From positions 1 to 64,000 of the forward strand of contig QPMI01000631.1 in the NCBI GenBank assembly GCA_004431415.1: a stretch of 64,000 nt of DNA. The letters run 5' to 3'. A program made the position numbers and the translations under genes. Source of the stretch: Cyanophora paradoxa CCMP329. Its lineage: Eukaryota > Plantae > Glaucophyta. Below, piece by piece: positions 1-35,894 of the stretch (position 1 is its first letter; every line of letters starts with the position of its first letter). Under the pieces are notes generated by a model that made no database searches, was not told the origin of the DNA, and worked only from the letters and a program-made list of their open reading frames with translations.

Positions 1-56
1 TGATGCGATATAAACGCGGTTTATAAAAATTATCTCTCATTCTAATAAAGATACAA

Positions 57-619
57 ATGCCTCCCCAAACGAAAAGATAGGGATCCCAGCTGGGGCTGTT
101 GGCTATTCAGGTGGTGGAAACAGTGGATCTATTAACACTGAACCAATGAAATTCAATGGTATGAATGAAGTCCCCTCAACCCCAAGAAGAACCCCTTAAT
201 GCTGCCTATGAGGAATCAGTCGATGACAAAGCCCCAGTTCAACTGCTGACAACTCAACATCTCACCAGAAGCCTCAAAATGAAGCTGTTGCTGAGGGTGC
301 CAGGCGAATTATTGGTGCTGCTGATGATAAAGGTTTAGGCTTGCAAGATCTTCACTGGCTCGCAAAGGTGAGGGTCTTAGTAAGGAATCGACAAGGTAAT
401 CAGTCTATGGCTGGTGAAGTCACATACAAGACTGCTCCCACTCAAAATATTCATCGAATTCCCAAGGCTCAATGGGATGAGATGACTGCTAAACTCAAAG
501 ATCTGGAAGCCAAATCAAGTGCCTTGGAGCAGTATGTTACTGAGAAGAAAGAGAGAGCCAAGCTAAAGGAGATGCTTCGAAAGGAAGTTTATAAATGGGA
601 TCACTGGTGTCCCAGATAA
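57..619 (+). CDS. Hypothetical element protein with coiled-coil C-terminus; frameshifted 5' half
   Basis: ATG at 57 behind the element promoter-like motif. Reading continues by frame-hopping (MPPK..IGIPAGAVGYSGG..QEEPLNAAYEES..GARRIIGAADDKGLG) into ORF 341-619 (WDEMTAKLKDLEAKSSALEQY). May continue to ~1089. Confidence 0.45.
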
Positions 620-1094
620 ACAGTTTATTGCTAAGAAGAGAACCAAATCGATGAGCAAGCAGTAGATTGAAATGAAACAAAGACCCAGAAAGGAACCATT
701 GAACCTGGTGCCACCAAAGCTGAGTAGAAAGGGAGTTGCCCCCAAAAATATAGAAAGACGAGTTTGGCTTTAATTATCTCTGTTTCTATTAGAGACATGG
801 ATATAATACGAAAGTTTTCGAGATGTTCAGTCTGCATGTGGTGAGCAATTGCCACAGTGGATCGCTGTGAGACAAGAGTGGAGTTTTGAGATGTCAGATA
901 ATGAGGATAATGCTTCTGAAAGGCAAGAGAGAGAAGGAGATCAACAGTTTCTGTGGAGTCAATGCAAGCAGACCCACAGAGTATACATATGAGCAACAGG
1001 AGTATCCAAGGAGAAGTTCTTTACCTGGTGAAACGTTTTCTCAGCAAATATTAATGGAGGATACAATTAAGTTTGATCGAGTTTACTAGTGATG

Positions 1095-1268
1095 ACTTTA
1101 ACTGAGGGTGCTATTAGACACATTCTAGCAAAGCAGAAACGATATAGAGAGGACCCAGCATATAGAGAGTATAAGAAACAACAAGCCCTGGCATCCTATT
1201 ATCGCAGAAAAGCCCAAAAAGAGGAGAGAGACCCAGAGGGAGACCGATTAAATATTATTGCCTACTGA
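1095..1268 (+). CDS. Small basic protein, possible AT-hook in an alternative frame
   Basis: Manual translation MTLTEGAIRHILAKQKRYREDPAYREYKKQQALASYYRRKAQKEE... A shifted frame at ~1229 reads RPRGRPIKYY (AT-hook core). Confidence 0.45.
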   Translation, partial: TLTEGAIRHILAKQKRYREDPAYREYKKQQALASYYRRKAQKEERDPEGDRLNIIAY

Positions 1269-1444
1269 TAGTAGCAATGGACCCACAGGTCTATAAGATA
1301 CTTGAGAAAAAGCGTCTCAGTATGCTACTGAGGCAGCTATTAAAGTTTACAGACAGGAACTGGTGTTCGCAACAAAAAATGACTTAAGAAAAAGTAGATA
1401 GGTTGTATTGAGGAAAAATTATTTCGTATCTACTATTAAAGAGA

Positions 1445-1836
1445 ATGCCGAATATCCGCAAGATACTCACAGATGATGAAAAAGCAGAAAGCAACTGAGA
1501 AAAGGAGCAAGATGCCAAAGAAAACGCGAAGCCTATCATAAAAAGAAGGAGGAACGATTATCCCAAGGAGCGCTACAGTTCACACACCAGAAGAACTCAA
1601 AAGATGCCCTCAGACACCAGAGGAAATACAGGGAAAAATGAAGAATATCGCGAACAGAAAAAGGCGAAAGCGCTGGAATACTACCACAAGAAAACGAACT
1701 ACCAAGACACCCAAAGAGCATAAACCGGTTGGAAGACCTCGGAAATATATCGAAGAATAAATTCTCGATCGAAACAAATTTTGTAGAAATCGATTTGATC
1801 GGAGGCAAAAAAATGACAGCTTTCTTCCCTTTTTAA
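1445..1836 (+). CDS. Small K/R/E-rich basic protein, frameshifted
   Basis: ATG 1445 behind the same promoter-like motif. Fragments MPNIRKILTDDEKAE, RHQRKYREK, EEYREQKKAKALEYYHKK resemble the upstream small ORF. Confidence 0.4.
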
Positions 1837-1973
1837 AAACTGTACCTATATAATCGAGACAGTATCCCGACCCAAAACTACTTAAGGACTTGGCAAATAA
1901 TAGGTATATATAAAGACAATTCTCCTTCCGAAATTATTTTCTTCGTAAAGGTAGAAGTCCCCCAAAATCGAAA

Positions 1974-4547
1974 ATGAACAAAATCGAGAAAATCGCCACC
2001 CTGTTGAAAATGCTACATTCCTTAGTACTCTCATTGGTGATCGCAACAAGGTCACCCATGTATGATTTCTTGAAGATGCCTTGAAGCCATTGATAATAGC
2101 AAGGTTAAGACCTGGGCTGAATGCATTCAGCCTGAACAAGTCACCAGAGTTTACCTGGACCTGGATAAATTCGCTGATTTGAAGGAGAACATTGCTTGAA
2201 AACTATGCTGAGCTGAAACTGTTGTAAGAGAGATGAGAGATAAGCTATGGAAGCGATCTGGACCATTCGATTAACGATATTGCTGTTGCAGTTCGCCATA
2301 GAAGGGTTTATTTGATCAAGGAGGATGTCACCAAGTTCAAGATCTCAGCCCACTTATCATTAAATCGCTTGCATGCAAACATGAAGATATCCCAAGCTTT
2401 TCAAAGCTATGGGATTGGTGAAAAATGAGGATTATGACAGTGGAGTTTACAGCTCCACACAGAACCTTATCTGCCTCAATTGCTGCAAAGGTGAGACTCT
2501 GGATGCTCAAAATAAATCAAAGAAAGATGTTGATAAAAACGTTTGCTTTAAGAAATTCGTTGACTGTGACAAAGTGTTAATGCGAAATGAGGACTTCTTT
2601 GTATCTTTCTTCTCAGCTTCTACTAAACTTGTGATGAATCGAATATTTCTGCATTCGCAAATTATAGCCTGAGCCAAAACCAGTTAAAAAGGAGCCAAAA
2701 AGTGATAAAGTGAAGACTGAGAAGGTAGAAGCTGAAAAAGACACTGAACCGAAAATCCTGTTACTTTCGAACTGCTACAAAGTGTTATAATGGGTCTCAA
2801 TGCTGAAAGAGCCAGCGAGTATAAGACTTGGATTGATGTTGGACTGGTCATCATCAATGTTGGGGAAGACAACAAATTTACCCTAAAATGCAGGCTGAAC
2901 TCTTCCACCAATTCTCAGAACAGAGTGACAAGTATGATTATGATGAATGCCAGGAAAAGTTTACACAGCTTCGCAGAAGCAAGAAGAAGGCTGAGCCTGG
3001 CAAAGTGTTGACCTTCAAATCCTTGGTTTATTGGTTGAGCAAAGATAACAATGAGCTTTTCAAGGAACTCTTCCCCAAAAAGTATGCATTCCTACCAGAG
3101 GACACAGATGAAATCGATTACAAGACTGCAAGTATCCTCCTTTGGCTGAACATTACAATGTGCATAAGAGGTATTTCAATGCTCGCATGCATCATGTTGA
3201 AAATGTTGGTTGTGTGATGCTCTGGGATGAACAACTACTTTGCTGGATGCCCAAAGACATTGGAAAACTGTCTACAAAGCATTTCCCCCACTTGATGCAT
3301 AAGGTGATTGTGAATGAGGGGACAGATAATGAGAAAGAGAAATGGGAGCAATCATTTAGGAAATGGATTGTGGATCCAACAGCCACAAGATCAACTTACA
3401 TGGATTTCCTCCACTCCTGCTACTCTCAGTGCAAAATGCAAGTCTGTATTTAATCTCTATCCAGGAATGAAGGTCGACCATCAGCAATTCGAAAATGCTC
3501 CAGAGGATGTAACTGCTGAGATGATTAAGCCTTTCCTTGATCACTTGTTCTTAATGTCTGGTGAGGATCAAAATACCTATGAATATCTGTTGAAATGGTT
3601 TGCCCACATGCTGCAAAGCCTGGGGAACTCAATGGAGTATCCTTAATCTTCATTGGTGAACAGGGAACTGGTAAGAATGTGTTGGTTTGATACTTTCCAA
3701 AAGAAGATACTTGGAGATGCCCTGAGTTATGCAACTGGTAAGCCAAAAGAGATCTGTTTGGTCGATTTGCCCACAATAGAGAGGATAAGATCTTGATTGT
3801 TTGAATGAAGCCTCAGGCAAGGACACATTCGAAAATAATGATATGCTTAAAGATCTCATTACTTCTGATAAGATTGTTATTGAACACAAAGGGATAGATT
3901 CATACACAAAAGCAACTTTGCCAGGATTATATCACCAGCAATAACAACATTCCAGTTAAAATTGAAGCTGGAGATAGGCGATTTGTGGTTGTTGAAGTTA
4001 GTAAGAAATTCGCAAAGGATAGGTCATACTTCCTTCCACTTGTAAAATGGCTTAATGATCACTGCAATATTCGAAACATTGCCCACTATTTGAGAACCAA
4101 AGTTGAATGTGAGGATGTGAACTGGATTGCTGATAGACCCCTTACAAATAAATACTATTTAGCCAGCAGGTGTGCGCTCCAATCATCCTTATGTTCACTA
4201 AGTGGCTTGTGGATCGAGGCTTAATTTCCGAGAATAAATGCAAGTCTGGTAGCCTTGTGGAAACCTGGAAATGGTTCCAGGAGTTCATTACCAGCAATAA
4301 ATATAAAAACGATTATAATAGTCGCAGATATTATACAGAAATGCGAAGTGTTACATATATCCAAGTGAAAACTACAAATGGTAAACAATACTATCATTTC
4401 CTATTCCCACAAGTATTTGAGGAATTCAGAAAGATGAAGCTTGTAGATGATGAGACCATTGAGGAAGAAGCTAATCCAAGGATGAAACAAGAACTACCTG
4501 CTGCTGATCCTGATGCATCAGATTATGACTCTGATGTTGAAGTTTAG
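1974..4547 (+). CDS. D5-like primase-helicase: AEP primase + PriCT-2 + SF3 helicase (multiple frameshifts in this sequence)
   Basis: AEP motifs RVYLDLDK (~2146-2170), KISAH (~2339-2353), DYDSGVYS (~2430). PriCT-2 EYKTWIDVGLVI..LFHQFSEQSDKYDYDECQEKF..LTFKSLVYW (2790-3040). Walker A GEQGTGKN (3655), Walker B ILIV-NEA (~3790), motif C ITSNNNIPV (3931), GDRRFVV (3970). Split over at least 8 ORF pieces. Confidence 0.9.
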
Positions 4548-4555
4548 GTTTACTC

Positions 4556-4738
4556 AAAAGTGGACTCACAGTTGACTCAAATTTATCATAAAAGACCCAA
4601 ACAGTCTTTTATTTATGGTTTATTTATCGATTAGGTTGACTAAGTGGGGGGAGTTGACTCATTTTTTCACAGATTCTAAAAGAGGACTCTGCCCTAAAAA
4701 GAAATAAAAAGTGCCTCAACTCCACCACTAAGTCAACC
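4556..4738. promoter_or_regulatory. Origin-like iteron module, copy 1 (inverted 25-bp arms around an AT-rich spacer)
   Basis: GGTTGACTAAGTGGGGGGAGTTGAC (4634-4658) and its imperfect inverse (4714-4738) lie immediately downstream of the helicase stop. The left arm is the exact reverse complement of 10926-10950. Function is inferred. Confidence 0.6.
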
Positions 4739-4789
4739 AAAAAATGATTTAAGAGATAGAAAAATATATTTATATGTAACTAGTAAGAA

Positions 4790-5194
4790 ATGGCTGGAAC
4801 AGATCATGATTCTGGATCGATCTATATGATTGAGAGTCAGGAAATGAACAAAGTCTACATAGGAAGAACCTCACAGCCACTTCAAAAAAGATGGAGACAA
4901 CACAAATCAGGTCAAATGCCATCTACAGCAGACCTATGCAAGGCTTCTGATGTGAAGTTCTCAGTCCTGTATTCAAGTAAGAAGGGTGGGCATGAAGACC
5001 TAATGAACAGAGAAGCATATTACATGTATCTCTTTGAACCTTGGATAGTCAATTTACAAAAACCGAAATCCCGATTTAGGATTAATAGGTTTTTGCGATT
5101 CCATTCAGAGGAAGCCAGTGATCCATTAAAACATTTTAAATTGCGTTTAGAACATCCTAAAATAAAATATCCCCTTAGAATAGGAACAAGTTAG
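4790..5194 (+). CDS. GIY-YIG endonuclease
   Basis: GSIYMI-x8-VYIGRT, conserved Arg (KRWRQH), Glu (NREAYY) and Asn (IVNL). Confidence 0.9.
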   Translation: MAGTDHDSGSIYMIESQEMNKVYIGRTSQPLQKRWRQHKSGQMPSTADLCKASDVKFSVLYSSKKGGHEDLMNREAYYMYLFEPWIVNLQKPKSRFRINRFLRFHSEEASDPLKHFKLRLEHPKIKYPLRIGTS

Positions 5195-5199
5195 GAATA

Positions 5200-8100
5200 A
5201 TGCCCCGAATTACCAACAAACTCATAAGGGAGAAGAAATGGGAACTCATGGGATTGCTGGGAACACTTTATGCAGCCATGAAATTACAGAGGCTGAATAT
5301 GACCGGGAAATAGATTTAATTGCAAAGGGCAGACCCACTTTAAGCAGATTAACCAGAAAAGCAAATAACCTATATGATAAAATTGAAACCTTGGATGAAT
5401 TGGATAGGCTTAGGCAAATAGAACCAGATGCAGAAGATGGAACAGCCATGAATGAATTATATCGCTGGCTCACTTACAGAGCCAGAAGGGAAGTTGTTGT
5501 AGATGTGATTGAATTCCTGGATAGAATTGCTACATCCTTCCAAATCGATTAAAGCAGGGTTTAGATCAATTCAGGGCAATCAAGGTTCGCTTGTCTTTTA
5601 TCTGCAAGTTCGTTAAAGTGAGCAATCCACAGGTTTGGATATCGAAATACATTTACAGTGATTACTTTGTATTAACCAGGTCGAGAAATATTCGAACTGA
5701 GCTGAATAAAGCAGCCCAAATGTGTCAGGAGCAGATGAATGTGGTTGATAGCTATCGCTTAGAAAGAATTGAAATACTCAGAGTGGCTATTATGAGTTAT
5801 GCTCCAACTGGTGGATGCTTTCTACAAACCCCAGAGTGGATTGCTAGGAAGAGAGCCACAGTAAATATTCGAAATATTGATGATTCCTGCTTCGAAAATG
5901 CAATTTTGGCATATATTCACAGAAAAGCGATAAACTCCCATAAGAGGAATGAGCTTTCACAATATCGCAAATGGAAATACTCAGCAATCGCTTATAATCC
6001 GCTGGCTCTCAATTTCGATAACATCCATTCCCTGTTGCCTGTGATGCTGATATTATTGATAAATTCGAGGCTCAAAATGCAGGCATTAGCATTAATATAT
6101 TTGGAATCGATGGAGAGGTTATTTATCCCTGCATCAATCAAGTAACCCAGGCAGAAAGCATAAGGTTAATCTCATGCTGATATTTGATGATGAAGGGAAT
6201 GGTCACTATATTACAATCATGTCCCTTTCAAGGCTATTGAAAGTAAACCATGAAACATACAATGATCAGAAGTTACACTACTGTGACACATGCTTATCTC
6301 GATTCAGGTCTGAGGCTAAACTCACTGCTCATGTGGACTCAAACAGATGCATTGATTGGAGACTCTCAAAGGGAATCACACCAAAACCTGAGACCACCAT
6401 AGAGTTTGGACTGAAAAACCTCAGGAAAACTGTTTGGCTTCCTGTTGTGGTTTACTGCAAGATTGAACATAGAAGCATCCCCATTGATGCATCGAAATCC
6501 AAGAGGGAAGTCTCAGCAGTCAACATTAGAATAGTCACTGGGGCAGATGTTCAGGAGTTTCGATTTGAGGGTCAGGATCCAATGGGAGGTCTGTTTGAAT
6601 GCTTGGAGTCCAAAGCAAGAGAGCTAATCGATTTCCTGTTCACCAATATTCCCATGAATGAACTCACAGATGAGCAAAAGGCTATTTACAGAGCTACCAA
6701 ACACTGTTACCTTTGCAGTGAGAGGTTCACCAAGGAAAACTTCAAATGCAGGGATCATGATCACCACACAGGTAATTACATTGCACCTGCATGCAGAAAC
6801 TGCAATCTCCATAGGAGAATCTCAAAGCAAACAAAGTAGCAGTGGTTGTTGACCAAATGGATGACTGTGGGACATTCATTTTCAGAAAAATAGCAGGCAT
6901 GGGTGATAAAAAGCGAATCGAAATCCTTTCGAAAAACTTTGATCAATACCTTTCATTGCAATGGGGTCTTTACAAGTTCATTGATGCAAGTAATTTTATG
7001 GACTTTGGGGCTGCTGATGTAGATGAGTTAATGAGCAAATTCCAGGCTTTCAGAAGGCTTTCACACTCAGTATATGGATTGGACCCAGTTCATTATGTAT
7101 CTGCACCTGGGTTATCTTGGGATGCTATGCTTAGGACCACCAAGGCAAAAATAGAGCTTATAAGTGATGTAGAGCAATACGAATTTGTTGAGAGGGGAAT
7201 CAGGGGTGGCTTTGCAACAATGCCTTGTAGGTATGCTGAGGCTGATGGTGAGAACTCCCATATAATGCTGTTTGATGCTAACAACTTGTATGGCTACTGT
7301 TTGAGTCAGCCAATTCCAGTTGGTGATTTTAGATGGGAGACCGAATTCAACCCACAAGATAACAGATCCAGTTTCCTAGAAGTTGATCTGGATTACCCAA
7401 TTAGGCTATATCTAGACCACAGTGATTTCCCCCTAATTATTAACAAGAAAATAGTAGAATATGCAGAATTATCACAATATCAAAAGAGCCTATTAGATCT
7501 CTCAGGAGAAGAGCTTGATAAAACCCCAAAGCTAACTGCAACCTTTGGTTCTGTGACAAACTATGTGATTTCTGAGCCTCTCCTACAGTATCTGTTGGAC
7601 AAAGGGGTGAAATTAAAGAAAATTCACAGGGTCCTATCATTTACTGTGGCTCCTGTAATGAAACCCTATATTGAACTGAACACTGAGATGAGAAGGAAAG
7701 CAGTGAATAAATTCGAGGCTGATTTCTATAAGCTCATGAATAATTCAATCTATGGAAAATGCATTGAATCTTGCAGAGGTAGATCTGTGGTTAAGATTGC
7801 AAACAGTGAGAAACTGTTTATGAAATATGCAGCCTCCCCATTGGTGAAATCAACCAGCCCCATAAACGAAAAAGCAGTTGCCTTTGAGTTTTACATAAAG
7901 CATGTGAAGCTAGATAAGCCAGTTGCTATTGGGGCTTATGTTCTGGATGCAGCCAAACTGCATAACTACAAGTTCTTCTATGATACTGTAAGGTCCCAAT
8001 GGACAAAAGCAAAGTTACTATTCCATGATACTGACTCCTTTTGTCTATATATCGAATCTAAGACCCTACAAAAAGATATAGAGAATATATCCTATGCATT

Positions 8101-8440
8101 AGACCTTGGAGGTGATTCCAGAATGACCCCAGGTAAATACAAAAATGAAATGCCTGGCTCTGCTATATTGGAGTATGTGGGTCTGAGAGCTAAAGTTTAC
8201 AGTTTCAGAACTGCTGAGATTGAGAGGAGTAAGCTCTCTGGGACTTCAACTGAGGAACTCCAATTTAATGATTTTAAACAGTGTTTATTTGCAGGTATCA
8301 GCAAGACTGTGACTGCAAAGCAGAAAAGAAGGGCAGATCACACAATAATAGACACTGTGAGTAGAAGGGTTGCCCTAAACTGCTTTGATGCAAAGAGATA
8401 CATCTTACCAGATGGTATTAATTCTGTTCCTTTTAATTAA
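5200..8440 (+). CDS. polB: Protein-primed family B DNA polymerase (Polinton type) with C2H2 finger, EndoVII-like Zn insert and degenerate exonuclease; frameshifts near 5255, 5552, 6040 and 6835
   Basis: N-terminal GGCFLQTPEWIARKRATVNIRNIDDSCF, C2H2 CDTC..H, CYLC..RDHDHHTG..ACRNCN, YGLDPVHYVSAPGLSWDAML, GIRGG. Motif A DANNLYG, motif B KLMNNSIYGK, motif C HDTDS, GLRAKVYS. Long A-B and B-C spacers are typical of pPolB. Start at 5200 is inferred; the core 5591-8440 is secure. Confidence 0.93.
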
Positions 8441-8443
8441 GAG

Positions 8444-9828
8444 ATGCCAGCAACTGGAAGAATAGTTAGGAGAACCACTGAGCAACTACAAGGTAACCTA
8501 CTGCCTATCACAGTTCCCAAGGAGGAAAAGGGAGAATCTCGAATTGTAAAAAAGTCAGAGATGAAAGAGCTTGTCCCAGTAGAGATCCCAGTTGCTATTG
8601 CAGTGAAAGAAACCAGCAAGATTGCCAAGAGATTCTATGATGTGAGAACTGGTTACAAAGGGCTTCAAGCTATGAGGGCTGAGTTACCTGATGAATCCTA
8701 TAAGCAGTTGCAAGAGTTCTATAAAAACAAGAAGTTGTTCAGATCAATGCACCTGCTATATCTAGGAAGAGAGATCCCATGGTCCCAATTAGGCAACCCC
8801 TTGATACCTATGTGATTGATTTGCTCTTTTTCCCAGCTTATAAGAAACAAAACAATGGCTATGATACCTTTATGACTGCAATGGAATCTACACTGAGAAC
8901 TGGGTATATCATACCTATAAGGGATAAATCAGCTCTCACTACATTAGCTGCATTTAAACAGCTTGAAATGAGAGTGGCAAGACCCATAGTAAAAGTTCAA
9001 TCAGATGCTGGGAGTGAATTCCAAAATCGAATATTCCAGGAGTATTTATCTAGTAAATTCATAGAACACCAAGTGAGTGGAACTGCAGACCACAGAAGCC
9101 AAGGTCGAATTGAAGCCTTTAACAAGCAGATTAAGAGACTGATCACAAACTACTGCATAGCTAATAACACAGCTAGATTCTTTGATGTGTTAGGTGATAT
9201 TGAGTATAATTACAATAATACAGTCCACTCAGCTACTAAGATGAAACCAGGCGAAACTACAGAGGAGCATTATAGGTATATAGTGGGATTAGAAGATGAA
9301 AGATTCAAGAAATCAATAGCTTACCTTGATACCATGCAGCCTGGCATGTTTGTTAGAGTGAAAGTTGAGAAGAACCCCTTTGCTAAACAGGGTAACAATT
9401 GGTCTAGGATGGTTTACACTGTTGATAGTAGGGAAGGCTTTAAGTTTAAGCTAAGGAGTCCCACTGGTGAGATCATAGAAAACAGGTTTGCTTTCCATGA
9501 GCTGTTGCCTGTGAATGCAGTTGAATATCTAGAAACCCCTACAGTGGATGCCTTGGAGCAAGCTAAAGAGGAAGCCAGGGCTGATGCTGCTATAAGGAGA
9601 GAAGGCATAGAAGCTGCTAATGAAGTCCCAGATAAGCCTTTGATAGAGGCTAGAAAGGAGAAGGCTGGGAAAGTTAACAGGGAACTCAAAAAGCTCACCA
9701 TAGCAGGGACACAGAAACTTTCAGAAGTGAATAGCCAGAGATGGTATAATGACTTTCAGACTACTAAGGAGTCATATACAGCTCCTAAACCTCAAAGAAC
9801 ACTAAGAGAAAGGACCAAAACTAGCTAG
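8444..9828 (+). CDS. int: Retroviral-like (rve, DDE) integrase of Polinton type
   Basis: Catalytic triad YVIDL / QSDAGSEF / GRIEAFNK, YNNTVHSATKMKP, and an SH3-like C-terminal domain. One base missing in the A-run at ~8723-8727 would join ORF 8444-8815 to ORF 8779-9828 (FYKKQEVVQINAPA). No chromodomain. Confidence 0.93.
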
Positions 9829-10199
9829 TTTGCTAGGCAAAAACTCGTTTTTTCCAAATATATGTATGACTGATATACATATATGCATATGATATACACA
9901 TAGTCTTGTAGATCTTATCAAGCGCTTCACAGCGATATGCAGAACGTTGCGTTTTGATGATCTGGTGATGAGATATAACAGTTTGAAGATGCAAAAGTCA
10001 CTTGCCATAGTAGACTTGGTGAAAGACTAGCCCAGGAGTCGACTCGACGGTAAGCCGTTTTTGGCTCAGAGAATAGAGCGCTTGATTTCTGACTCCAACC
10101 TACGCGGTTCAAATCCGCTCGGGAACCTTTACTTCGTTCGCCGTGAAACTTGAAAAGTAAAAAAAAACGCGGTTTTTTCTAGATTAATGCTGTACCCGT

Positions 10200-10720
10200 C
10201 TAGAAAATCAATATTCACGTTTGCTACGATATCTCAACACCAACTTATCAAATCGATGCGCTTAAAACGTCATAAAATCGAGCATTTCAAGGCGGTCACA
10301 GCGCTTATGAGCCATATCGGAATTTCACTAACTGTAACTCCAAATCGCGATGAAACCGATTTTGAATTTTGATTTTAAATTCGATTAAAATCCATTAAAC
10401 GTGAGTTTTTAATATAGATCACTAGGAAGTTATCAAATCGATGCACTGACGGTCGAATATAATCCCATATATCATACATAACAATAACTTGCAATCACAT
10501 ATACGAATCGCAATGTGTATAGATCGCTATTACGATTAAAGCGAGTTTTGAAAATTCAAAACTAATTCGATTAAATTCGATTATAACGAAAGAGTTAAAG
10601 ATCTACATCAAATACTTATCAACTCAATCACCTGATAACATCGAATAATCAACCCAAATCTACTTTAGAGATAATCGTGATTACATATGTGAAATCATCA
10701 ATCTAACACTGCATTTAGTA
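10200..10720. repeat. About three degenerate ~185-bp tandem repeats in the element terminus
   Basis: TTATCAA(A/C)TC(G/A)AT anchors at 10245, 10430 and 10616. TTTTGAA..AATTCGATTAAA anchors at ~10360 and ~10545. Confidence 0.65.
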
Positions 10721-11480
10721 AGCATCTCCCCTTGATTCCCCCTATTATATTATATTTATATTTAAGTGGACTCAAGGTTGACTCATATTAATCGTAAAAG
10801 TAGTAAAAGTATATGGATTTTGTTACGAATTCAATGCAAGGGTTGACTAAGTGGGTTGAGTTGACTCAAATTTCACAGGAAATATTTGGGACCTAAAGTT
10901 TTCTAAAAAGGATTTGAAAAAATGTGTCAACTCCCCCCACTTAGTCAACCCTGACCATAAACAGTAAGGATTTGAGCTAACAAGTATCACAAAGTGAACA
11001 TTTTGAGTCCACTTAGAAGATCCACCTAACAATTTAGAGTCAAATTTACTTGGGAATTCGATTTGTATGAAAAAGTGAGTCCACCCTGACCATATTCAAT
11101 AAGCATTCCTCTTAATCCCCTTGTTTATATTTACATTGATTAATATTTAATACTAAGTGGACTCATGGTTGATTCATATTAATCGTAAAAGGAGTAAATG
11201 TATATAAAAATGTGACCATTTCAATGCTAAGGTTGACTAAGTGGGTTGAGTTGACTCAAATTTCAGAGGAAATTTTGAGATCCAAAGAATATTCTATAAA
11301 AGATTTTGAAAAATGTGTCAACTCCCCCACTTAGTCAACCCTGACCATATACAGTAAGCATTAGAACTTAAATGTATCACAAAGTGAACATTATGAGTCC
11401 ACTTAGAAGATCCACTTTTGAAATATAAGTTGATTTTGCTTGAAATTTCAAAGTTGATCTAAAAGTGAGTCCACCCTGAT
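10717..11480. repeat. Two ~390-bp direct repeats, each containing the origin-like iteron module (copies 2 and 3)
   Basis: TAAGTGGACTCA at 10763/11154 and AAGTGAGTCCACCCTGA at 11073/11463. Inner inverted arms at 10841-10865/10926-10950 and 11231-11255/~11317-11340. Outer inverted pair at 10763-10775/11003-11015. Confidence 0.9.
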
Positions 11481-11494
11481 TGATTATGGTAACA

Positions 11495-11866
11495 AAGTTG
11501 ACTAAGTTGACTAAGTTGAGTCATCTTAAGAAATTCAAGAAGACTAAGAGTTCAAAATGTTTATGAAAAGTGAGTCAACTTAGACCACTTATGGTAACAA
11601 AGTTAAATATTTAATTGATTTAATCGGAAAAGAACATGATTTAATCGAATTTATTGATATAATTCCGATTAGATTCATTTAGGATTCAATTAAGATTAAT
11701 CGAAGTTATAGATATAATTCCGATTAACTACAATTAAGATACAATATCGATTAATCGAGTTTATCGATATAACATCGATTAAATTAATTGAAAATGCATT
11801 TAAAAATATGAAAATTCATGTGAAAATTCAAATAAATTAATCGATTTTATTGATATAACATCGAAT
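11495..11866. repeat. Subterminal 9-bp iterons (AAGTTGACT x3) and four ~32-bp imperfect palindromes
   Basis: AAGTTGACT AAGTTGACT AAGTTGAGT at 11495. TTAATCGA-n-TTAT-n-GATATAA-nnn-CGATTA units at ~11641, 11696, 11751 and 11837. Confidence 0.85.
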
Positions 11867-11941
11867 CACACATATGAATATTCATATTTTAATCCTGAGG
11901 CGGAACGCCGAGGGATTAAAATATGAATATTCATATGTGTG
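11867..11941. repeat. Perfect terminal hairpin (29-bp arms, 17-nt loop) at the element/host junction
   Basis: 11867-11895 is the exact reverse complement of 11913-11941. The loop contains GGCG-GAA-CGCC, and each arm holds the 16-bp palindrome ATATGAATATTCATAT. Confidence 0.95.
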
Positions 11942-12952
11942 CGGCGGCGGCCGCAGCCGCCGGGCAGCGGAACCGCACTGTGACTCTCCTGGACGGCCTC
12001 ATGACGGCGCTCCGCTCGGCGGAAGAGGTTCTGGCCGCCGCCGCCGCGGCCGCGGTGCCGCCGCCCGCGGCGGCCAACGCGTCAGCATCTGCGCTCCGCG
12101 CAATCGCGGCGGGCCGCATGACCCCTGGCCTCTTCTTCCTCCTTGCCAACTCGTGCGAAATCGAACCCCTTAGGCCTTCAATAATTAATTTCTGCCTCCC
12201 TCCTACATCCTTCGGCTCCTCTGAAGCGCCCCGGCCCAGGATCATGGCGCTTCCCGGCGGCAACTCGGCCGTGGCTGCCAGTTTCACCGCCAGCGCAGTC
12301 CGCACTCTGGCTCTGCCCTTGTCCCCGCGCGCCTCAGATTGCAAGCTGGGCCGCCTGCAGATTCGCCGGCTGGACACCACACGCCGAACCTCCCTTATCC
12401 TCTTCTGCGCCGCCGCCGGCCTCGCCGTCTTCCTCATGCATGCCCGCCCGCCCCGCGGGGCGGCGCTCGGGCCGGCGCCCGCTCGCCCCGCCCTCACCGG
12501 GCGCCCAGATTTGGGGTGATGCTGCCCGTGCTCTGGTACGTGAGGCGGACCCGCGACCGCCTTCTCCGAGTTTTCCTGCAGGCTCGCGCGGCCCGTCCCC
12601 GCCCCTGCCGCCTCGAGTTGAAGACCCGGCTCAGATCCCGCGGAGCACGGCCCGCGAAATTCGAGCGGAAATCCTCGCCCCCCTTTTTCCCAAGCGCGAG
12701 CCGGGCCCCGAGCTCGAGGAGGCGGAACCAGATGCCGCAGGCAGAGAGGCGCAGGCGCAGGCGGGCGGTGTCAATGCGCACGCTAACGGGTCGGCCCCAC
12801 CCAACCTGCGATCGGACGAAGCGGCGGCGTCGTCATCGTCGGAGCGGGAGGGCGGGTCCGAGGGGGACGGGTCGGAGGAGGGGGAGGCCCCCGCGCTCGG
12901 GTCCGAGGCGCCGAGCGGCGATCGCGAGGACGAGGTGCGCCGCGCCGTCTGA
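11942..12952 (+). pseudogene. 3' part of a host gene apparently interrupted by the element
   Basis: An Ala-rich open frame runs right up to the junction with no host start codon. Host-type introns (e.g. GTGCGA ~12152..CCAG ~12239), a hydrophobic segment SLILFCAAAGLAVFL, and an acidic tail ending at TGA 12950-12952. Confidence 0.5.
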
Positions 12953-13186
12953 AAATTTCGGGATTGCGATGGAATTTCGAAGCTCGCCGATAAAGCCTGC
13001 TCGCTGCTCGCCTCTGCACGGCTTCCGCACCTCACTCCCCTGTGCGCCCCACACAGGCCGAGGAGGCGGAGGCGGCAATGGTCGACTACGCCCGCCTCGA
13101 GGCGCGCCTTGCTTTTATGAAAAATGATCAAGTCTTATAAGACATCATAAGAGTTTTGCGCCTCGCTCGGCTTATAGTTACGCTTA

Positions 13187-16100
13187 TGTTTAGCCTCGCG
13201 ATCGCTCATGGGGCGCAGATGGAGGGCGGGAGGGCCCGCGTCTTCGGTCCGCCACGCTCGCGCACCGCCACGTCTTCGGTCCGTCGCTCAGCTGCGCCGC
13301 CCGCCCGCCCGCAGGCCCTCTGGCGGGCCTCTTCCTCCGCTTCTGCCTCGTCGTGCTTCTGGCCCTCGGCCTCGTCGCCGCGTCCTTCGCCGTCGTTGTG
13401 GCGGCCACCCGCGCCGCGCAGCGCCGCAACCTCGTCTCCGCCGCTGTCCGGCCCCGCGCCCCTCCGGATCCGCCTGTTCCCTGGCTATGACCCGCCGCCT
13501 CGGCCGCGGGCGCTCACTCAAATGTCGCCGCAGGCGACAGCGACACAGTACGGCGCCGCGGCACTCGCGGCGCTGTCGGTCGAGCTCGCCGTCGCCCAGA
13601 CGCCCATCGGCGCGCCCTTCTGGCGCGGCGGCTTCAGGCAGGTCCAGGCTTTGATGGGGCGGATTGCGCAGGCGTTCCTCGCGAACGTGCGCCGCAAGGC
13701 CGCTGCGCTTGCGGCGATCCCCCCGCCGCCCATGGCCACCGACGCCGCGTGCAGGGCACCAATGCGATCCTCTTTGGCGGTTCCGTCCTGACACTCCCGG
13801 GGACCATCGGTGAGCTCGAGGGCCGCTCTAGATTCGAGGGCCGTGACTAGATTTTAGATGCGCTAGGCACTTCACCTCTCTCCTAATCGTGACGCTCCCT
13901 TCCAACAGACACCGGTGTCAACGGCATCGACAGTCACCTCTACTACGACGTGTCGGCTGCCGTCGACGCCACCCGCCGCTTCGCCGTCGCCCGTGCGCGG
14001 GCCGGGCGGGCCTGCGCATGAGCCCCCTCCGGTGCTGGCGCCAATCGCGAGCCGCCGCAGTGGCGGCGCAGGCACACGAGAAGACGGACCAGGCGATCGC
14101 GGCGCTCTCGCTCTGCTTCGTGATCGCCGTCCCGCTCCTCGTCTGCCTCTACGCCGCCTCCCTCGCCCCCTCCATTCACGTGCATGCGGCCCCACCCCGC
14201 GGCCATCGCTCACATTGAGCCGAGTATCGAGCCGTGTCCGGATCCGCAGCGGGTCAAGAGCGAGTTCCTGGGCGATGCGAGCATGCTTCTCTACATTCCC
14301 GCCGAGGCCCGGGAATTATATATGGAATTTTGGAAATGTGGTGGAGCTCGAGCCGAGGCCTGAGCGTACGTATACGCGCCCCCGCAGGTCCTCGGGGATC
14401 TGCCGGCGCTGCGGCGGCTCGTGCGGGCGAGCTCGCTGGCGGGGTCGGACCCCCTCGCGGTCCTCGCCTCCACCCGCGAGCGCAACGAAGCCCTCCTGCG
14501 GGCCTCCCTCGGCGCGGCCCCGCTCGCGAACCCTCTCCATCCCGCTCGCCATTTGCAACGCTAACCGACGAGCGCGCGTGCGCAGACCCAACGTTTATCG
14601 TCGACGCGGAGGGCGTCATTCAGGCCCGTCCCGCTGTCGCGCCGCTCTGCTTCGGGGGCCTTTCAGCGCGCCGCAGAAAGCCAACGGGGCGGCGGCTGCG
14701 ATCCTCAACTGCGGTGCCCCCGAGGACCTCGCGGGGTCCCGCCTCGAGGAGTTCTTCCCCTCCCTGCGGCTCGCGCCTCACGGCCGCCGCCTCAGGTGCG
14801 CGGGCCGATGCGAGGCTAGGGCCCTCCGCAGCTGAGGCCGCCGGCGCCCCTCGCAGCGCGGGGTCGATTGAAGAGGTCACCCACAGCGTCCCTGTCCGGA
14901 GCGGAGTCATCGGTGGCAACCCCGAGGCTCGCCCGCGCCCTTCCCCGTCTCTGCATGTTTGTTTGCAATTGGTTCAAGTGCCCGGCAGGAGGACTCGATC
15001 GAAGGGGTGCGGCGGGGCGGCGAGCGCTTCCCCGCGCAGGTCTCCCTCGGCGGGGGCCTCACCGAGAGCACCGACCGCGAACGTGCGCCCTCTAATTCGA
15101 TCCCGAGCCCCGCCTGAAATCGAACCCCGCCCCGCCCCGCCCCGCCGGGCTGCCCGCCTGAGCTCGGCGGCCGTAGGGGAGGAGCCCTTCTTCGTGGTGG
15201 TGGCGAGGGACGTGTCGGCGCTCGTCGCAGAGCAGCGCGCCCTCCGCGCCGCCGTCGTCCGCCCCGCCGCCCTAGGCCCTCGCTCCGCCCCGCTCCGCCA
15301 GATTTGACTCTCTCTGCTCTGCAGGAGCGGGCGGACGCGCTGCTGCGGACGATGGTGCCCGCCGACATCGCGCGCCGCCTCATCGCCGGCGAGCAGCGCA
15401 TCGCCGACGTGCGCCGGCGCCCGCCGCACGGGACGGGACGAATTCGAAGCTTTCTCCGACGGCGCGTGCGCAGCTGCTGGACGACGCCACGCTCGCCTTC
15501 TTCGACATCCCGGCGCGCCGGCGCCCCACGCACTTCGAACTCCTCTCCTCTCTCTGCTGCCCGACCCGGCCTCTCTTCTGACCATTCGAATTCTTTTCCG
15601 GCCTGCCCGCGGCCGCAGGGCTTCGCTGCGCTCTCAGCGGAGATGCCGCCCGCGCAGACGGTCGCCCTCCTCCAGGCCCGCCCCCGCCCCCGCCCCCACC
15701 GCCCCCCGCCCCCGCCGGCCCGCTAAGGCGTTGGGGGCGGGGGCGGGGGCGGCGTGCGTGGGCGCAGTCGGTCTTCCGCGCCTTCGACGCTGTCAACGAT
15801 CGCTTCCGCGTTGAGAAGGCGCGCGCTGGCCCCTAGCCTCCGGGCCGGGCCGCCGGGCCGCCGCCATATGCATCGCCCACCGAGTGCCTCGCTGAATGCC
15901 GCACCCGATCGCTCGCGAGCAGGTGAAGCTTATCGGGGACACGGTACGTAATTATAATCCTTAGGAATTTACTTTCAAGTCCTTACGCACGGCCGGCGCG
16001 CGCCCCCAACGCGGTGCCCCCCGGCCCGGCCCGGCCCGCAGGCGTTCTACATCACGCGGGAGCCACCGGAGCAGATGGTCGAGTTCTGCCTCGCTGTCTT

Positions 16101-17445
16101 CGCGGCCATGCGGGTCCGTTGTATTAGAAGTAGTGCGGGTTGTTATACTAGAGCTATTACTAGAAGTGGGTTTAATCGTTGAATATCGATAGGAAACCAT
16201 TAAGTTCGCGTTGAGCTCACCTCGCCCTCTGCCTCGCCGTCTAGATCTTCGCGACCATGCGGGTCTGTTACATATCTGTTAGCTCTAGAAATTTGTGTAA
16301 TCGTTTGATAGGAAACTTTTATTAAAAAAATATTGAGTTCACGTTGAGCTCACGGCATTCGACCTGGCCCGGCATATGCAGGAGGTCTCCTCGGTGGCGG
16401 GTGTCGATCTCAAGCTCCGGTCCGCCCCGCACGGGCCGCGCCTCGCCCGCTCGGGCTCTGCCCCCGCCCTCGAGCTCGCGGATCGCGCTCTGACGCTCTC
16501 GAGCTCGCTCTCGCTCTCGCTCGCAGCGCCGGACTCAACACGGGGTCCGCGCGCCCATTCGCGCCCCCGGCTCCCTCCCACCGTCTGACAGCCGCCGCCG
16601 CCGCCCCGCAGCTCGGTGGTTGCAGGCGCGCAGGCCCGGTGGCCCGGGACGACGCGGGGGGGCGCTTCCGCCCTTCGAATTCACTGACGCCCGCGGCGCG
16701 CGCGCGCGGGGGCCGCAGGGGTGATCGCGACGAGGAAGATCGCGTGGGACGTCTACGGCGACAGCGTCAACCTTGCCTCCCGGTGCCGCCGGCGCCCGCT
16801 ATAGAAGAAATCAACGAATTCGAAGCTAAACGGGGGCTTTAAAAGACATTCGCTCTTTTCTGAAGACATGTGGTGCCGCCAGCGCCGCCGGCTCGCCCCG
16901 CGCGCCCCTCGCGCCCCTCGGCCCCACGCCCCGGCCCGCCGCGCAGGATGGAGAGCACGGGGGTGCCCGGCCGCATCCAGGTCTCGTCCGCCACCTACGG
17001 TCCGCCGCTGTATATTTATCCCCGCTTTAAGATTTCTATAGCTAAGAACAGCTAATAAGCCATTAAAGAGATTAATTCGACGTGGTTCGGCTTCCTTTTG
17101 GTCGCCTCCGCCACCAATATATAGCTATCGTCCCCGGCCCGCACCTCCTCGAATTCAAAATAAATTTAAAGGTGGTCCGCGCAGAGCGGGTGCGGGACAT
17201 GTACGAAATGGAACCCCGCCAAGTGGAGGCCAAGGGCAAAGGGAGAATCCAGGCTCGCGTTCCCCGTGGAGGCGGCGCGGCGCGGGGCTCACAAGACGCG
17301 CGGCGCGTATCCTGCGCAGGCGTACCTCGTGGGGAGGCGAAGGGTGCGGGAGGCGGAGCGCGACCCCCTCTCTGCGCCCGCCTGCCCCCCGGCCCCGAGC
17401 GCGCGCTCAGCCGCGGGGCCTGCAGCTGAAGCGCCCGAAGAGTGA
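13187..17445 (+). CDS. Two-TM sensor + PAS + class III adenylyl cyclase (multi-intron)
   Basis: TM helices RFCLVVLLALGLVAASFAVVV and IAALSLCFVIAVPLLVCLY; PAS-like PTFIVDAEGVIQ..FFVVVARDV. Cyclase: [58 protein letters not shown], KGKG. Lys/Asp specificity pair indicates ATP. Start is approximate. Confidence 0.88.
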
Positions 17446-17990
17446 TTTGAATTCCCGGGAGTCCGCTGCTGTTTCACGATGAGCCTTGTAATATATAGAG
17501 CTTTCAACGCTGGGGCTTCGAACCCCGCTCGTAACTTATAAGCCGCCCCCGTTTTGAGTCTTGGGAGTGCCCACGCCCCATTATCGACGGCCTGACGTCG
17601 GACGGGCCGTCTCACTGAGTCAGGCACGTCTGTCACACTGTGCGACATGTACTCTGATGTACAGGCCTAGCTATAGGCACTCCTTCGGTGTAGCTGCGCA
17701 TGCCACTATCATAGTATAGCTAGCTGGCCCAACTTGGCAAGAAGACCTGAAGACGCGTCAGTGGCGGCGTCACCTGTGACGGCCCTGACGGGTCGCTTGC
17801 AATTGCACTTGATGCATGCGCACCGATCGCGATCGACGCTCTTGCCAATTTATATTAAAAAAACACCCGGTACCGGTACAGGTACATTGGCGCTGGGGTA
17901 CAGACGCACAGTCTTGAAGCCGCATCGCCGCAGCGCCAGCTGCACCCCCTTTCGATGCCGATCCAGCTTCCTCACAACTAGCGCTAGGGA

Positions 17991-20900
17991 ATGGATGCGC
18001 TGCTGTCGTCGACGCCGGAGCAAGCGGCGCTCGCCGAACTCGTCGCCGAGTGGGAGCGCTTCCGGGCCGGCGGTGTAGCTCCCAGCAAGAAAGCCTACGC
18101 ACTGTGCATCAGCCCCGGCGTCACGGCCCTCCTGGGCGCAGCCGCCGCGGAGCACGACGGCGCCAACGAGCGCGTCTTGCAGGGGGCGGAGGCGGAGCTG
18201 CTCCTCTCGCGTGGGCTCCTGGACTGGTCCTTCGTGCGGCGCGCTCTGGGGTCGGCAGCCGCGGCGCCGCCGCCAGCCGACATCGAGGACGTCGCCGCGC
18301 GGGAGGCGGAGGCCGCCGCCTTTCGGCACGCCGCCCGCAGCGTCGCATGTGCGCCCCACGATCTCGGCCCGCGATCTGCGCACCGCTCACTCACCCGGCC
18401 CGCCGCCGCGGCGACCGCGCGCGCTCAGCGGCCGCCCGGCACGCGCACGACTTCCTCGCCGATGTGGACGCCGGCCGCCTGCGCGAGCTCTACGGGCCGC
18501 AGCTGGAGGCGCTGGGCGACCGCCGGGCGACCGTCGAGCTCCTCTACAGCGCGCACCGCTCGGGGCAGCACGCTCTCGCCTTCCCTGGCCTAGTGCGCCC
18601 TCCCTTCCGGCCGGCCCCGGCCGCGGCTTCGGCGTGCGCTTTCGGGCGCGCCGCGCCGCGCCTCACGCGAGCCGCGCGCGCAGGTCGCGCTGCTGGAGCG
18701 CGTCCTGTCCGACCTGTACTACCGGGACCAGCCTGGGAGCGCGCCCCCGCACCTCCTCAAGGCGAGCGAGCGCCAGACCAGCCCCTCCCCGCCCTCCGCG
18801 CGGGCTCGAATCCCGCGCAGGAGCTTCTCGTCAGCGAGTGCGCGCGGGCGGCCCTGGGAGAGGACGCGATCTTTGCGCTCCGATGCTTCGTGGGGCCCCC
18901 CACCGGCCTCAACCTGAGGCGCGCCGCGCCCCGTACCCCCCGTGCCCTCCGGATCCATACCCCCCTCCCCCTGACCCGGCTACGCGCGCAGGAACATCGT
19001 ATGGTGCGCAGTTCTCGGCGCGCGCATCCTTCGAGCGCGCGTACCCCCCGACACGCCGACATCCGCGTACCCGGCAGGCACGGCTTCCTCTCCTCCTCGG
19101 AGCTCGACGCGACCTTCTCGTGCGGTCCTGTCCCTTCCGTACCCCCCCCCCGCTCATCGCGTACCCAGGTCCCTCCTTTTCGTCGTGTTCTTCACAGTCA
19201 TCTCCGCCGTCTCCGCCGGGCCCCGTGGGCCCCGCCCCGCCTTCGCACGTACCCCCGCTTCCTTCGAACCCCACGCCGCCGCCCTCCGGCGCGAGGGACT
19301 ACCCCCCCTTCCGCTCCCCTCCCCCACCCGCCTCCGCCGCCTCGTCTCGAACTCCCTTTTCGTCCTGGGGGGTAGGGAATCCGACCTCCTGGCCGCTCTC
19401 GAGGTTCGAGCGCCCGTATCCCCTTGTTCCATCGTACCCCCGTTCATCGCCCCCTCCGCTCCTCCAGGACTTCCGAGCGGGGCGATCCCTGCAGAGCATC
19501 GTTCGCCTCCTGCCGCTCTTGGAGATGTGCCTGCGGTGCATTGTACCCCTCCCCCGCCACTCTTGTTCCCCCTCCCCTTCAAATGACCGATGCGGGGGTG
19601 TGGCAGCCGCATCTTCGTCGCAGAGAACGGTCTTCCCCTCGGGGCGATGTGGGCCGAATCTTGCGCCCTCTGTGCGTCCGCCTCCCCCCCTCCACACCTG
19701 TACCCCGTGGGGTTTCCGAAGCGGGGTACGCTTCCAGACACGACGCTGGACGATGTGCTGGGGGCCGGCGTGTGCTTCACAGAGGCTGGCGAGCGCAACG
19801 GGGCCCGTCGGTGGGTGTACCCCTGGAGTCCTCCCCCTGCCCCCCCACCCCCCCCCCCCCTCTCCTGGAACTGGGCGCTGCGGCCGTGTTTGATGTTCGA
19901 CTCGCCGCAGCGCGGGCGGCGGGGGCCCCTTCGCGGGTCCTCGGACAGGGGGGCGGCCCAACCTGCTCCGCCCCGCCATCGGCGCGCCGCTCGCGCCTGT
20001 ACCCCCACCCCGTGGTCGCCGCTGACCTTGTACCCCTCAGGCGAGGGTCTGGTCTGGGCCCTGTACGACGCTGTTCTGGCCTACGACGGACCCCGGCTGA
20101 GGCGCGCCGCGGGCCCTCTGGAGGCGCACGCACGAACCGAAATCTGATACCCCTGCAGGGACCGTGTAGCCCACGGGGAGACCGTTGAGGGCGGCGTACC
20201 CCCCGAGGCGTGCCAGTACCCCTGAATCTCTTCCCACTCTTCTCTGAGCGGCAGTGCAGGTCTCCGAGCTTCTGGTGGGGGCTACCGTTGCGCTCTGCGC
20301 CCGCTTCGAGCCGCCTGCTGCCGGGGAGGGGTGCGAGGAACCCGAGCTCGAGTCGATTGCCGCGCACTTTCGGGGGTACCGCTCCGCGTTCCACCCGCTC
20401 AGCATCCTCCGGAGGGCCATCGAGGCGAGCCGTGTACCCCCCTCCACTCCTCCTGCCCCCCCCCCCCTCTTACTTTTTCGCCGCAGGACGCGGAGGAAGA
20501 GGCGGGGCGCCTGGGGGCGGAGGTGGGGGCGGCCCTCGCGGCGCGGCCCGTCCGCCACTCCTGCCGCCTCCTGGACGTGCGCTACCCCCCCCCCCCCCCC
20601 CCCCCCGGCGGCTCACCTGAGGGCGGACCAGGCGGACCAGGCCGAGTACTTCGAGCTGGCGGCGGACGGCTCCGACGTCCTGTGCGCTCAGATCAGATCA
20701 GATTCGATCTGATCTGGTTTGATCTGAGTCGGCCCTCGCGGTCCGGCCCGGCAGGCCGGCGGCGGGCGCGAAGGCGGGGCCGACCCTCTCGGAGCTCGCG
20801 GCGCGCGCGGCGGAGCTCTGCGCTTCGCTTCGGGCCTCAGGCGGCCCCTTTGGCGTGCGTCGGGTCGGGTCGGGTCGGGACCCGTCCGCTCTGCTCTGAT

Positions 20901-35752: not shown

Positions 35753-35894
35753 GACATGCATGCACACCACCGGGGGGGGGGGGGGGGGGCTTCATCACGA
35801 GCGGGGTACTGAACTCTCGTTGTCTGGCGACAGTGCCGCGCGGCACGTATACGTATGCCGCGACTGTAGCGTGCAGCACGTGAGCGAGATATCG

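Follow-up and report, generated by a model that had tools for sequence, protein, structure and literature searches.

The first 11,941 of the 64,000 nucleotides analysed here (the window: positions 1 to 64,000 of contig QPMI01000631.1 from Cyanophora paradoxa CCMP329, assembly GCA_004431415.1) probably come from a multi-copy element of the Polinton/Maverick class and represent the right-hand end, now decayed, of one of its integrated copies. This end carries a replication and integration module made up of a helicase, a GIY-YIG nuclease, a protein-primed DNA polymerase (pPolB) that is devoid of exonuclease motifs, and an integrase. An earlier annotation made from the letters of the DNA (the sequence-only reading) had likewise proposed a Polinton-class integrated element with its replication and integration genes clustered beside a repeat-rich palindromic end, and that proposal is upheld.

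The element part, positions 1-11941, is a low-GC block. The guanine-plus-cytosine (GC) content is 0.34-0.41 over 1-12000, against 0.54-0.75 beyond, and the switch at 11940/11941, to host DNA of 60-73% GC, is sharp: ...CATATGTGTG of the element abuts CGGCGGCGG of the host. All genes lie on the plus strand in the order PriCT-2/D5-like superfamily 3 helicase (SF3 or S3H), GIY-YIG, pPolB and DDE integrase, followed by repeats and a palindrome. The arrangement of GIY-YIG, pPolB and rve integrase in one co-oriented block with the helicase, which had been noticed from the letters, is borne out by a Pfam search run on stop-to-stop pieces of the window. The parts of the element are as follows.

1..1400, plus strand: element sequence with no assigned function; GC about 0.41, broken open reading frame (ORF) pieces, extending past the left edge of the window
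1400..2747, plus strand: predicted N-terminal part of the helicase gene, from frame translations; K/R-rich YY-type repeats at about 1077-1760 and, by eye, motifs resembling those of archaeo-eukaryotic primases (AEP) at 2237-2520
2748..4547, plus strand: PriCT-2 and D5-like SF3 helicase gene, from Pfam, a colinear profile and tblastn
4634..4738, no strand assigned: first copy of the stem-loop module, lying after the stop of the helicase gene and before the start of GIY-YIG; fold -22.5 kcal/mol, z -5.3
4790..5194, plus strand: intact GIY-YIG nuclease ORF of 134 amino acids, from Pfam, with an ATG start
5238..8440, plus strand: pPolB, PF03175 and PF02945, with about four frame changes near 5540, 6028, 6110 and 6850
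8444..9828, plus strand: rve-type DDE integrase of about 460 amino acids, with one frame change between 8725 and 8815
9829..11866, no strand assigned: non-coding terminal region with repeat arrays, without a convincing ORF
11867..11941, no strand assigned: terminal 75-nt palindrome with 36-nt arms and a CACACA...TGTGTG tip, from folding and junction contigs

The polymerase is matched by DNA_pol_B_2 (PF03175) at 6815-8440 (E 2e-14) and by an Endonuclease_7-like zinc module (PF02945) at 6096-6839. The window retains intact polymerase motifs, with DANNLYG as motif A, KLMNNSIYGK as B and HDTDS as C. Homologues number 3766, and the motif and identity counts given here are taken from the best 120 of them. 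These are 958-1438 amino acids long; many carry PF02945, many are encoded on eukaryote-sized contigs, and one is named from coral. They are 33-39% identical to the window pPolB, except for P0001 (48-50%), an intact ORF of 1083 amino acids from another source and the sole close relative among the best 120. Residues 127-1077 of P0001 align with the window pPolB in tblastn at 41-48% identity, and overlaps in this alignment indicate that the frame changes are simple frameshifts, not introns. A tblastn search of pPolB against a phage collection gave zero matches. In its PF03175 domain, its 3766 homologues, its motifs A, B and C and its fold (see below), the protein is a polymerase of the kind found in Polintons/Mavericks. 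Its N-terminal region keeps, by eye, a Cys (DDSCF) and a His (GNGHY) resembling those of an OTU domain.

An AlphaFold model of 6815-8440 was obtained with a pLDDT of 89.2. The top viral folds for this model are the PolBs of MELD virus and adintovirus (TMq 0.88-0.89); MELD virus, adintovirus and bidnavirus-like or 'parvo-like' PolBs match it with E values of 1e-33 to 1e-40 and TMq of 0.75-0.89. The mavirus PolB appears at rank 41, with E 1.8e-8, TMq 0.40 and 11% identity, which is not what a mavirus-type pPolB would give. By its sequence and modelled fold, the window polymerase is of Polinton/adintovirus type and not of mavirus type.

The exonuclease domain of this polymerase is degenerate. The window pPolB and P0001 were aligned with ten Polinton pPolBs, with the following outcome at the three exonuclease motifs.

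ExoI: ADFEA in the references, CKIEH in the window, AQIKT in P0001
ExoII: HNLKGYD in the references, DQMDDCG in the window, HDLATYG in P0001
ExoIII: YHDLYxxxD in the references, deleted (about 190 columns) in the window and likewise deleted (about 190 columns) in P0001

Among the best 120 homologues, the ExoI DxE is kept in 118, ExoII also in 118 and ExoIII in 117 (each of 120), and P0001 is the only one from which all three are missing. Because P0001 is an intact ORF from another source and has suffered the same loss, the absence of the exonuclease motifs is, as judged from these sequences, a trait of the lineage and not a product of the decay of the window copy.

Next to the polymerase gene lies that of the integrase. 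The rve domain is matched at 8725-9828 with E 1.8e-4, below the Pfam cut-off, and the protein is 79-80% identical to P0271 (463 amino acids). The D, D and E are present; both Asp columns are invariant and the E lies in IEAFN. P0271 matches the integrases adjoining pPolB in 29 of 84 related pPolB loci, and the window integrase is 21-28% identical to the integrases that flank pPolB in related loci. The element thus possesses the retrovirus-like (rve, DDE) integrase of Polintons/Mavericks.

In the helicase gene, PriCT_2 (PF08707) is found at 2837-3217 (E 1.7e-5, above the Pfam cut-off) and a DUF5906/D5-like helicase at 3789-3944 (E 4.8e-4, a 51-residue piece below the curated cut-off). Nine pieces of the window are colinear with a profile of eight full-length primase-helicase homologues, profile positions 214-751 corresponding to 2748-4544; for the helicase core the profile match on 3898-4221 has E 3.6e-31. 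Walker A (GEQGTGKN) is recognizable near 3640, and TSNN and DRRF near 3950-4000. Both an SF3 helicase core of the DUF5906/D5 type and a PriCT-2 domain are therefore encoded. The pieces are 29-37% identical to their homologues in tblastn, and the best representative matches reach 46-48% over about 80 residues. The homologues are 684-847 amino acids long, and in Pfam they show AEP_C962R, Prim-Pol or no detected domain at the N-terminus and, after it, PriCT_2 and DUF5906; in a cluster look-up of nine relatives the only name was 'hypothetical protein'. In the window the gene is interrupted by at least seven frame changes and by in-frame stops at 3688 and 3739.

The sequence-only reading had seen here a primase joined to PriCT-2 and an SF3 helicase. 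The last two are confirmed by Pfam and by the profile, but an AEP catalytic domain is not demonstrable by Pfam, profile or blastx. Seven pieces between 1642 and 2787 gave, at Pfam E<=10, only TonB_N at E 0.26; profile positions 1-213 had no match in the window; and a blastx search of the region upstream of 2748 against 92 homologue N-termini found a match at the start of PriCT-2 only. Frame translations of 2237-2520 do display the AEP-like motifs DLD, SAH and DSGVY by eye, at a place with no Pfam, profile or blastx match, and their spacing is presumably pRN1-like. Further upstream, 1077-1760 looks like coding sequence rich in K and R, in which Y-R-E...K-K...Y-Y motifs recur while the frame shifts; it has no family match and may be the N-terminus of the helicase protein. 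The pieces at 227-619, 631-1020 (minus strand) and 1077-1268 gave zero Pfam matches, and an Atlas search with the ORF at 227-619 gave no usable match. A 22-nt direct repeat of 86% identity (CAAAAAATGAYTTAAGA...) occurs at 1373-1394 and at 4738-4759. The second copy precedes the start of GIY-YIG by about 30 nt, and the first stands at the left edge of a stretch of lower depth (see below); the repeat is possibly a common promoter-like motif.

It appears that the element is abundant in its host. Public sequencing runs were compared as assembled contigs; 20 of the 24 listed runs hold all or part of the stretch and 14 hold at least half of the sampled words, and 19 of the 20 runs holding it carry one same organism label. 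The word depth of the contigs, which is a rough guide and not a copy number, is about 1000-19600 on the element (about 6200-14700 over 1..1400) against 15-170 on the flank. Position 7675 is covered by 12 different contigs in run X3. Junction contigs in X1 and X11 (11914/11916-12925) show 0 differences from the window, so that this insertion is common to at least two runs. A second insertion is seen in X15, where a contig spans 11383-11940 and then enters a different flank from the same terminal base. Within the window itself, a blastn self-comparison found no further copies. Other copies of the element, anticipated by the sequence-only reading, are thus at hand as a multi-copy family with a second insertion at the same terminus; whether some of them are without helicase and GIY-YIG is not settled by the four- to sixfold lower depth found there (see below).

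Two further peculiarities of X15 may be mentioned. In one of its contigs 8259 is joined through TAT to 10238, which makes it a deletion derivative that has lost the C-terminal part of pPolB, the integrase gene and 400 nt of terminal sequence. The coverage by X15 falls on 6260-8259 and 10238-11940, and its deepest contigs (50-100) are those over the terminal repeats and stem-loops, not over genes; no run bearing the stretch is listed as RNA, and for X15-X19 RNA is only a guess.

In the helicase region, four DNA runs have essentially one contig path per run, at a depth of about 1740-2270. This main path differs from the window by about 1.7% substitutions and many insertions and deletions. Its insertions at 3135, 3410 (in X1 and X4 only, not in X2 or X11), 3614, 3750 and 4162 fall on five sites of frame change in the window, and by frame arithmetic they place 2837-3944 in one frame and likewise 3898-4547. 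Because the main version has insertions at these frame-change sites, the window copy is most readily taken for a decayed representative of a family with a more intact main version. The +TC at 3410, present in X1/X4 and not in X2/X11, was considered as a sign of an episome and set aside, bubble-popping being able to give the same pattern.

The stretch that holds the helicase and GIY-YIG genes belongs, on balance, with the rest of the element. This is because its GC content is the same as elsewhere in the element; because its stem-loop module is shared with the terminus; because the 22-nt repeat at 1373 returns at 4738, ahead of GIY-YIG; because a contig of depth 1220 in X2 spans 4494-5296 and so links the stem-loop module, GIY-YIG and the start of pPolB; and because a variant without GIY-YIG (see below) still joins the stem-loop module to the region upstream of pPolB.

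A number of points weigh against the reading of 1-11941 as a Polinton-class end with its own helicase. The window covers the right end only; the left part extends beyond position 1, placing the major capsid protein, ATPase, protease, left terminal inverted repeat (TIR) and target-site duplication (TSD) outside view. The stretch from about 1400 to 5150 has a word depth 4-6 times below that of 1-1350 and of 5400-9900. The helicase or this GIY-YIG was found in none of 84 related pPolB loci (504,717 bases, E 1e-4), and a Polinton pPolB, this integrase or this GIY-YIG in none of 80 IMG/VR helicase loci (1,037,342 bases), contigs that bear helicase relatives at 25-36% identity. An intact protein of the element's helicase gene is absent from the protein collections searched, the PriCT piece giving 0 matches to longer proteins. 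The more intact main version of that gene, as it appears, rests on frame arithmetic with contigs that pop bubbles, and the differences listed, which leave out 54 rows of insertions and deletions, account neither for the stops at 3688 and 3739 nor for a frame change between 3750 and about 3944. Four related IMG/VR contigs (L001-L004) with a pPolB-integrase end have no terminal palindrome. Finally, protein priming, the function of the helicase and the role of the palindrome (see below) are predicted from sequence and by analogy. The lower depth may reflect copies that have no such stretch, copies whose version falls short of the likeness threshold, or an inflation of depth elsewhere by more variants. 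It is uncommon for a D5-like helicase gene to be paired with a pPolB of the Polinton type: the two occur together in 0 of the 164 fetched loci. All of these loci, when searched with 1-2800 by tblastx and with 9801-11941 by blastn, gave no match.

The lower depth and the two null counts can be taken to mean that one subfamily of an ordinary Polinton acquired the helicase/GIY-YIG stretch secondarily, by capture or as a nested insertion, with a polinton-like virus or something giant-virus-like as the source, and that the stretch has no integrated role in replication. The existence of the GIY-YIG-less variant agrees with this, as does the mosaic nature of the replication modules of polinton-like viruses, reported in the available part of PMC11296320. 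A bracketing TIR, TSD or long repeat was however not found around the stretch, and no contig in five DNA runs joins about 1400 to about 5150, with no loose ends listed at those places. Loose ends at 1314 and 5276 had been considered as structural breakpoints and proved to be plain divergence. The match in GC content and the stem-loop module shared with the terminal region speak against an insertion, too, as does the apparently frame-preserving main version of the stretch at high depth; moreover, a polymerase with a dead exonuclease gives the helicase a plausible role. We regard such a capture as possible but unlikely.

GIY-YIG is the only intact ORF among the identified genes of the element. 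Its catalytic domain (PF01541) is recognized at 4787-5194 with E 1.4e-10 and 41.7 bits, against a cut-off of 22.6. Minority contigs in runs X1 and X4 join 4726 to 5157 with 28 other letters between; the depth of the GIY-YIG-less contig is about 197, against about 1050-2400 for contigs bearing the gene. Since its presence differs among copies, GIY-YIG would likely be a facultative, homing-type cassette.

How does this module compare with known systems? Low-GC endogenous mavirus-like elements (EMALEs) encode a primase/helicase, pPolB and rve integrase, according to the available text of PMC8547959. In mavirus, the helicase lies between the TIR and the integrase, PolB follows, and a GIY-YIG is found within 800 bp; a 'replicative end module' has been proposed for polinton-like viruses and mavirus (both from the accessible part of PMC11296320). 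The available part of PMC11071308 describes pPolB viruses that lose the exonuclease domain as gaining a helicase, S3H in mavirus and a fused superfamily 1 helicase (S1H) in polinton-like viruses. Bidnaviruses pair a Polinton-derived pPolB with a stand-alone S3H, as stated in the portion of PMC4061559 at hand. The sequence-only reading had considered the element the best candidate for an undescribed system; this does not hold for its gene set, which these sources, as far as they are available, already describe for mavirus and EMALEs and in part for bidnaviruses.

The element thus has, like mavirus and EMALEs, an end module of helicase, rve integrase and pPolB with a nearby GIY-YIG, in a different order. 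It shares with them, going by the parts of those sources at hand, a low GC content in a high-GC host and a reduced pPolB exonuclease combined with a separate S3H. This invites the view that 1-11941 is not a Polinton at all but an endogenous mavirus-like virophage, reactivated by a giant virus and equipped with the mavirus-style end module, the more so as it is multi-copy. The polymerase argues otherwise, the mavirus PolB with its rank of 41, TMq of 0.40 and 11% identity standing against 0.88-0.89 for MELD virus and adintovirus. The order is helicase, GIY-YIG, pPolB, integrase and end here, and TIR, helicase, integrase and PolB in mavirus (PMC11296320, in the part available). The exonuclease domain is degenerate but retained here and a small remnant in mavirus. 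The capsid genes lie outside the visible part. A virophage identity is accordingly quite improbable.

Reading the element as a Polinton, we find it alike to Polintons, adintoviruses and MELD viruses in its large pPolB with PF03175 and an EndoVII/HNH-like module, the best viral folds and the 33-39% identity to proteins on eukaryote-sized contigs. Near one end, its rve integrase follows immediately on pPolB, an arrangement also found in the four IMG/VR contigs mentioned above (which have an A32-like ATPase as well), and the element is multi-copy and integrated. It differs from Polintons in having none of the three exonuclease motifs, in its D5-like PriCT-2/S3H helicase and GIY-YIG beside pPolB (0/84 loci) and in the 75-nt terminal palindrome. 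With the Bidnaviridae it has in common a Polinton-type pPolB and a separate S3H (in the part of the source at hand), bidnavirus-like PolBs being among the best folds; those small animal viruses, however, have segmented single-stranded DNA genomes that code for a parvovirus-type S3H but for no integrase, whereas the present element is integrated, measures at least 12 kb and has a D5-like helicase with PriCT-2. The AEP, PriCT-2 and DUF5906 architecture of the helicase homologues is that of polinton-like viruses with an AEP-S3H, the flanks of which contain no pPolB or rve integrase (0/80). A survey of protist genomes presents pPolB and primase-helicase as alternatives (PMC10120064, in its available part).

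The terminal region that follows the integrase consists of repeat arrays, detected by a repeat search and listed here without strand.

10243-10650: three repeats spaced by 186 bp
10763-11479: 390-bp tandem repeat, 1.8 copies, about 80% identity, holding two stem-loop modules
11495-11519: AAGTTGACT, 2.8 copies
11641-11891: 55-bp repeat, four copies, with TAATCGA...TCGATTA cores

TAATCGA has 15 matches where 5.9 are expected, 9 of the 15 being in 10381-11844, and GTTGASTYA has 9 matches in the window where 0.59 are expected, 8 of the 9 inside the element. The stem-loop module of about 110 nt occurs three times (4634-4738, 10839-10952 and 11231-11342) with z from -5.3 to -7.4; copy 1 shows blastn self-matches to 10764-10950 and 11155-11340. 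The arms of the terminal palindrome are 92% complementary. Its DNA fold has -39.6 kcal/mol and z -10.6, and 0 of 200 shuffles were as good. Repeats and a terminal hairpin, as described from the letters, are indeed present. The outward strand of the element end reads 5'-CACACATATG... No Rfam family reached the gathering score in the terminal region. A tRNA-like look of 10040-10130 was rejected (ARAGORN 0 genes, nothing in Rfam at gathering score), and so was the identity of the palindrome as a miRNA precursor, the sub-threshold matches having 29-44 bits against cut-offs of 75-100.

The 168 ends of the 84 pPolB loci include only two palindromes that stand out, one with 30-nt arms in L039 and an AT-rich one with 23-nt arms in L037; palindromic ends are too few in related pPolB loci to count as a trait shared with relatives. 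The one in L039 (positions 15-76) is GC-rich with arms of about 30 nt and lies 15 nt from the end of a 5.9-kb metagenome contig, whose pPolB is 33% identical to that of the window. It may be a bidnavirus-like or parvo-like genome end, or an assembly artefact. A palindromic Polinton terminus is not described in the available portions of PMC11296320 and PMC4061559, which does not prove that none has been published.

A working model of the life of the element can be proposed. Insertion of the linear double-stranded element would be the task of the integrase, acting on the element's ends, and pPolB would copy the element by protein priming at the terminus with its CACACA reiteration. Short terminal reiterations are used in sliding-back protein-primed initiation by adenovirus and phi29-like systems, and protein priming is favoured here because the CACACA fits this mode. 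The separate S3H helicase would supply unwinding for the exonuclease-less polymerase, and the pattern of exonuclease lost and helicase gained would here have a third case. The subterminal 55-bp repeats, together with the palindrome, would be the binding and origin site for these proteins in the sense of the 'replicative end module', and the palindrome is likely the end at which the element replicates and integrates. Folded on a displaced single strand, the palindrome could also self-prime, as the sequence-only reading had suggested.

A more radical scheme makes the element a transitional replicon between protein-primed Polintons and the primase-helicase polinton-like viruses. Having lost proofreading, it would have recruited a D5-type primase-helicase with its own hairpin and iteron origins, and replication would start at the hairpin ends or internal origins with pPolB only elongating; we hold this to be rather improbable. 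Replication might also dispense with the terminal protein altogether, through self-priming at the terminal hairpin (rolling-hairpin) and/or internal iterons primed by the primase-helicase. The near-perfect palindrome is a feature of the family, being carried by the second insertion and with its left arm covered by a contig of depth 3746, and it would suit such a mode, as would the repeat arrays and the three stem-loop modules. PriCT-2 usually follows a primase domain, to judge from the Pfam architecture of the homologues, and the loss of proofreading suggests a changed mode of replication. Against this stand the AEP catalytic domain that Pfam, profile and blastx all fail to detect, a pPolB in which motifs A, B and C and the long N-terminal region are all retained, and the CACACA reiteration itself, a feature of sliding-back protein priming. 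Replication of this kind is, in our opinion, very unlikely.

It is highly unlikely that the high-depth version is an extrachromosomal, persistently replicating virus-like or plasmid-like genome of which the window holds an old dead integrated copy: the single helicase path at similar depth (about 1740-2270) in four runs with several-fold different flank depths and its divergence from the window (about 1.7% and many insertions and deletions) would fit, but at least two chromosomal junctions lie at the exact terminus, the coexistence of many pPolB-region variants (12 contigs at one site) fits dispersed genomic copies, and the pattern of depth can arise from bubble popping and GC bias.

In the host part of the window, GC dips to 0.51-0.59 occur at 22000-24000, 26000-28000, 32000-33000, 34000-36000 and 40000-42000; these have no similarity to the element. 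The only Pfam match among 22 long ORFs in the GC-rich flank is DUF4209 in the ORF at 17918-19372 (E 1.9e-6). An Atlas search with one ORF of the host flank gave no usable match.

Returning to the Polinton-class element, its gene set is not new in itself. What differs is that the set comes with a polymerase of the Polinton/adintovirus-type clade, with an exonuclease domain that is degenerate yet retained, and with a palindromic end, a combination that supplements to the papers cited may already list. The element would represent an independent case of exonuclease loss and helicase gain within the Polinton/adintovirus-type polymerase clade, one in which the exonuclease domain is degenerate, not deleted. 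It also shows that an end module of helicase, integrase, PolB and GIY-YIG can occur outside virophages. The organism in which the element abounds can be cultivated and has many sequenced strains, and the helicase gene appears frame-preserving in its main version; the link between loss of proofreading, gain of a helicase and the structure of the terminus would therefore be open to testing at the bench.

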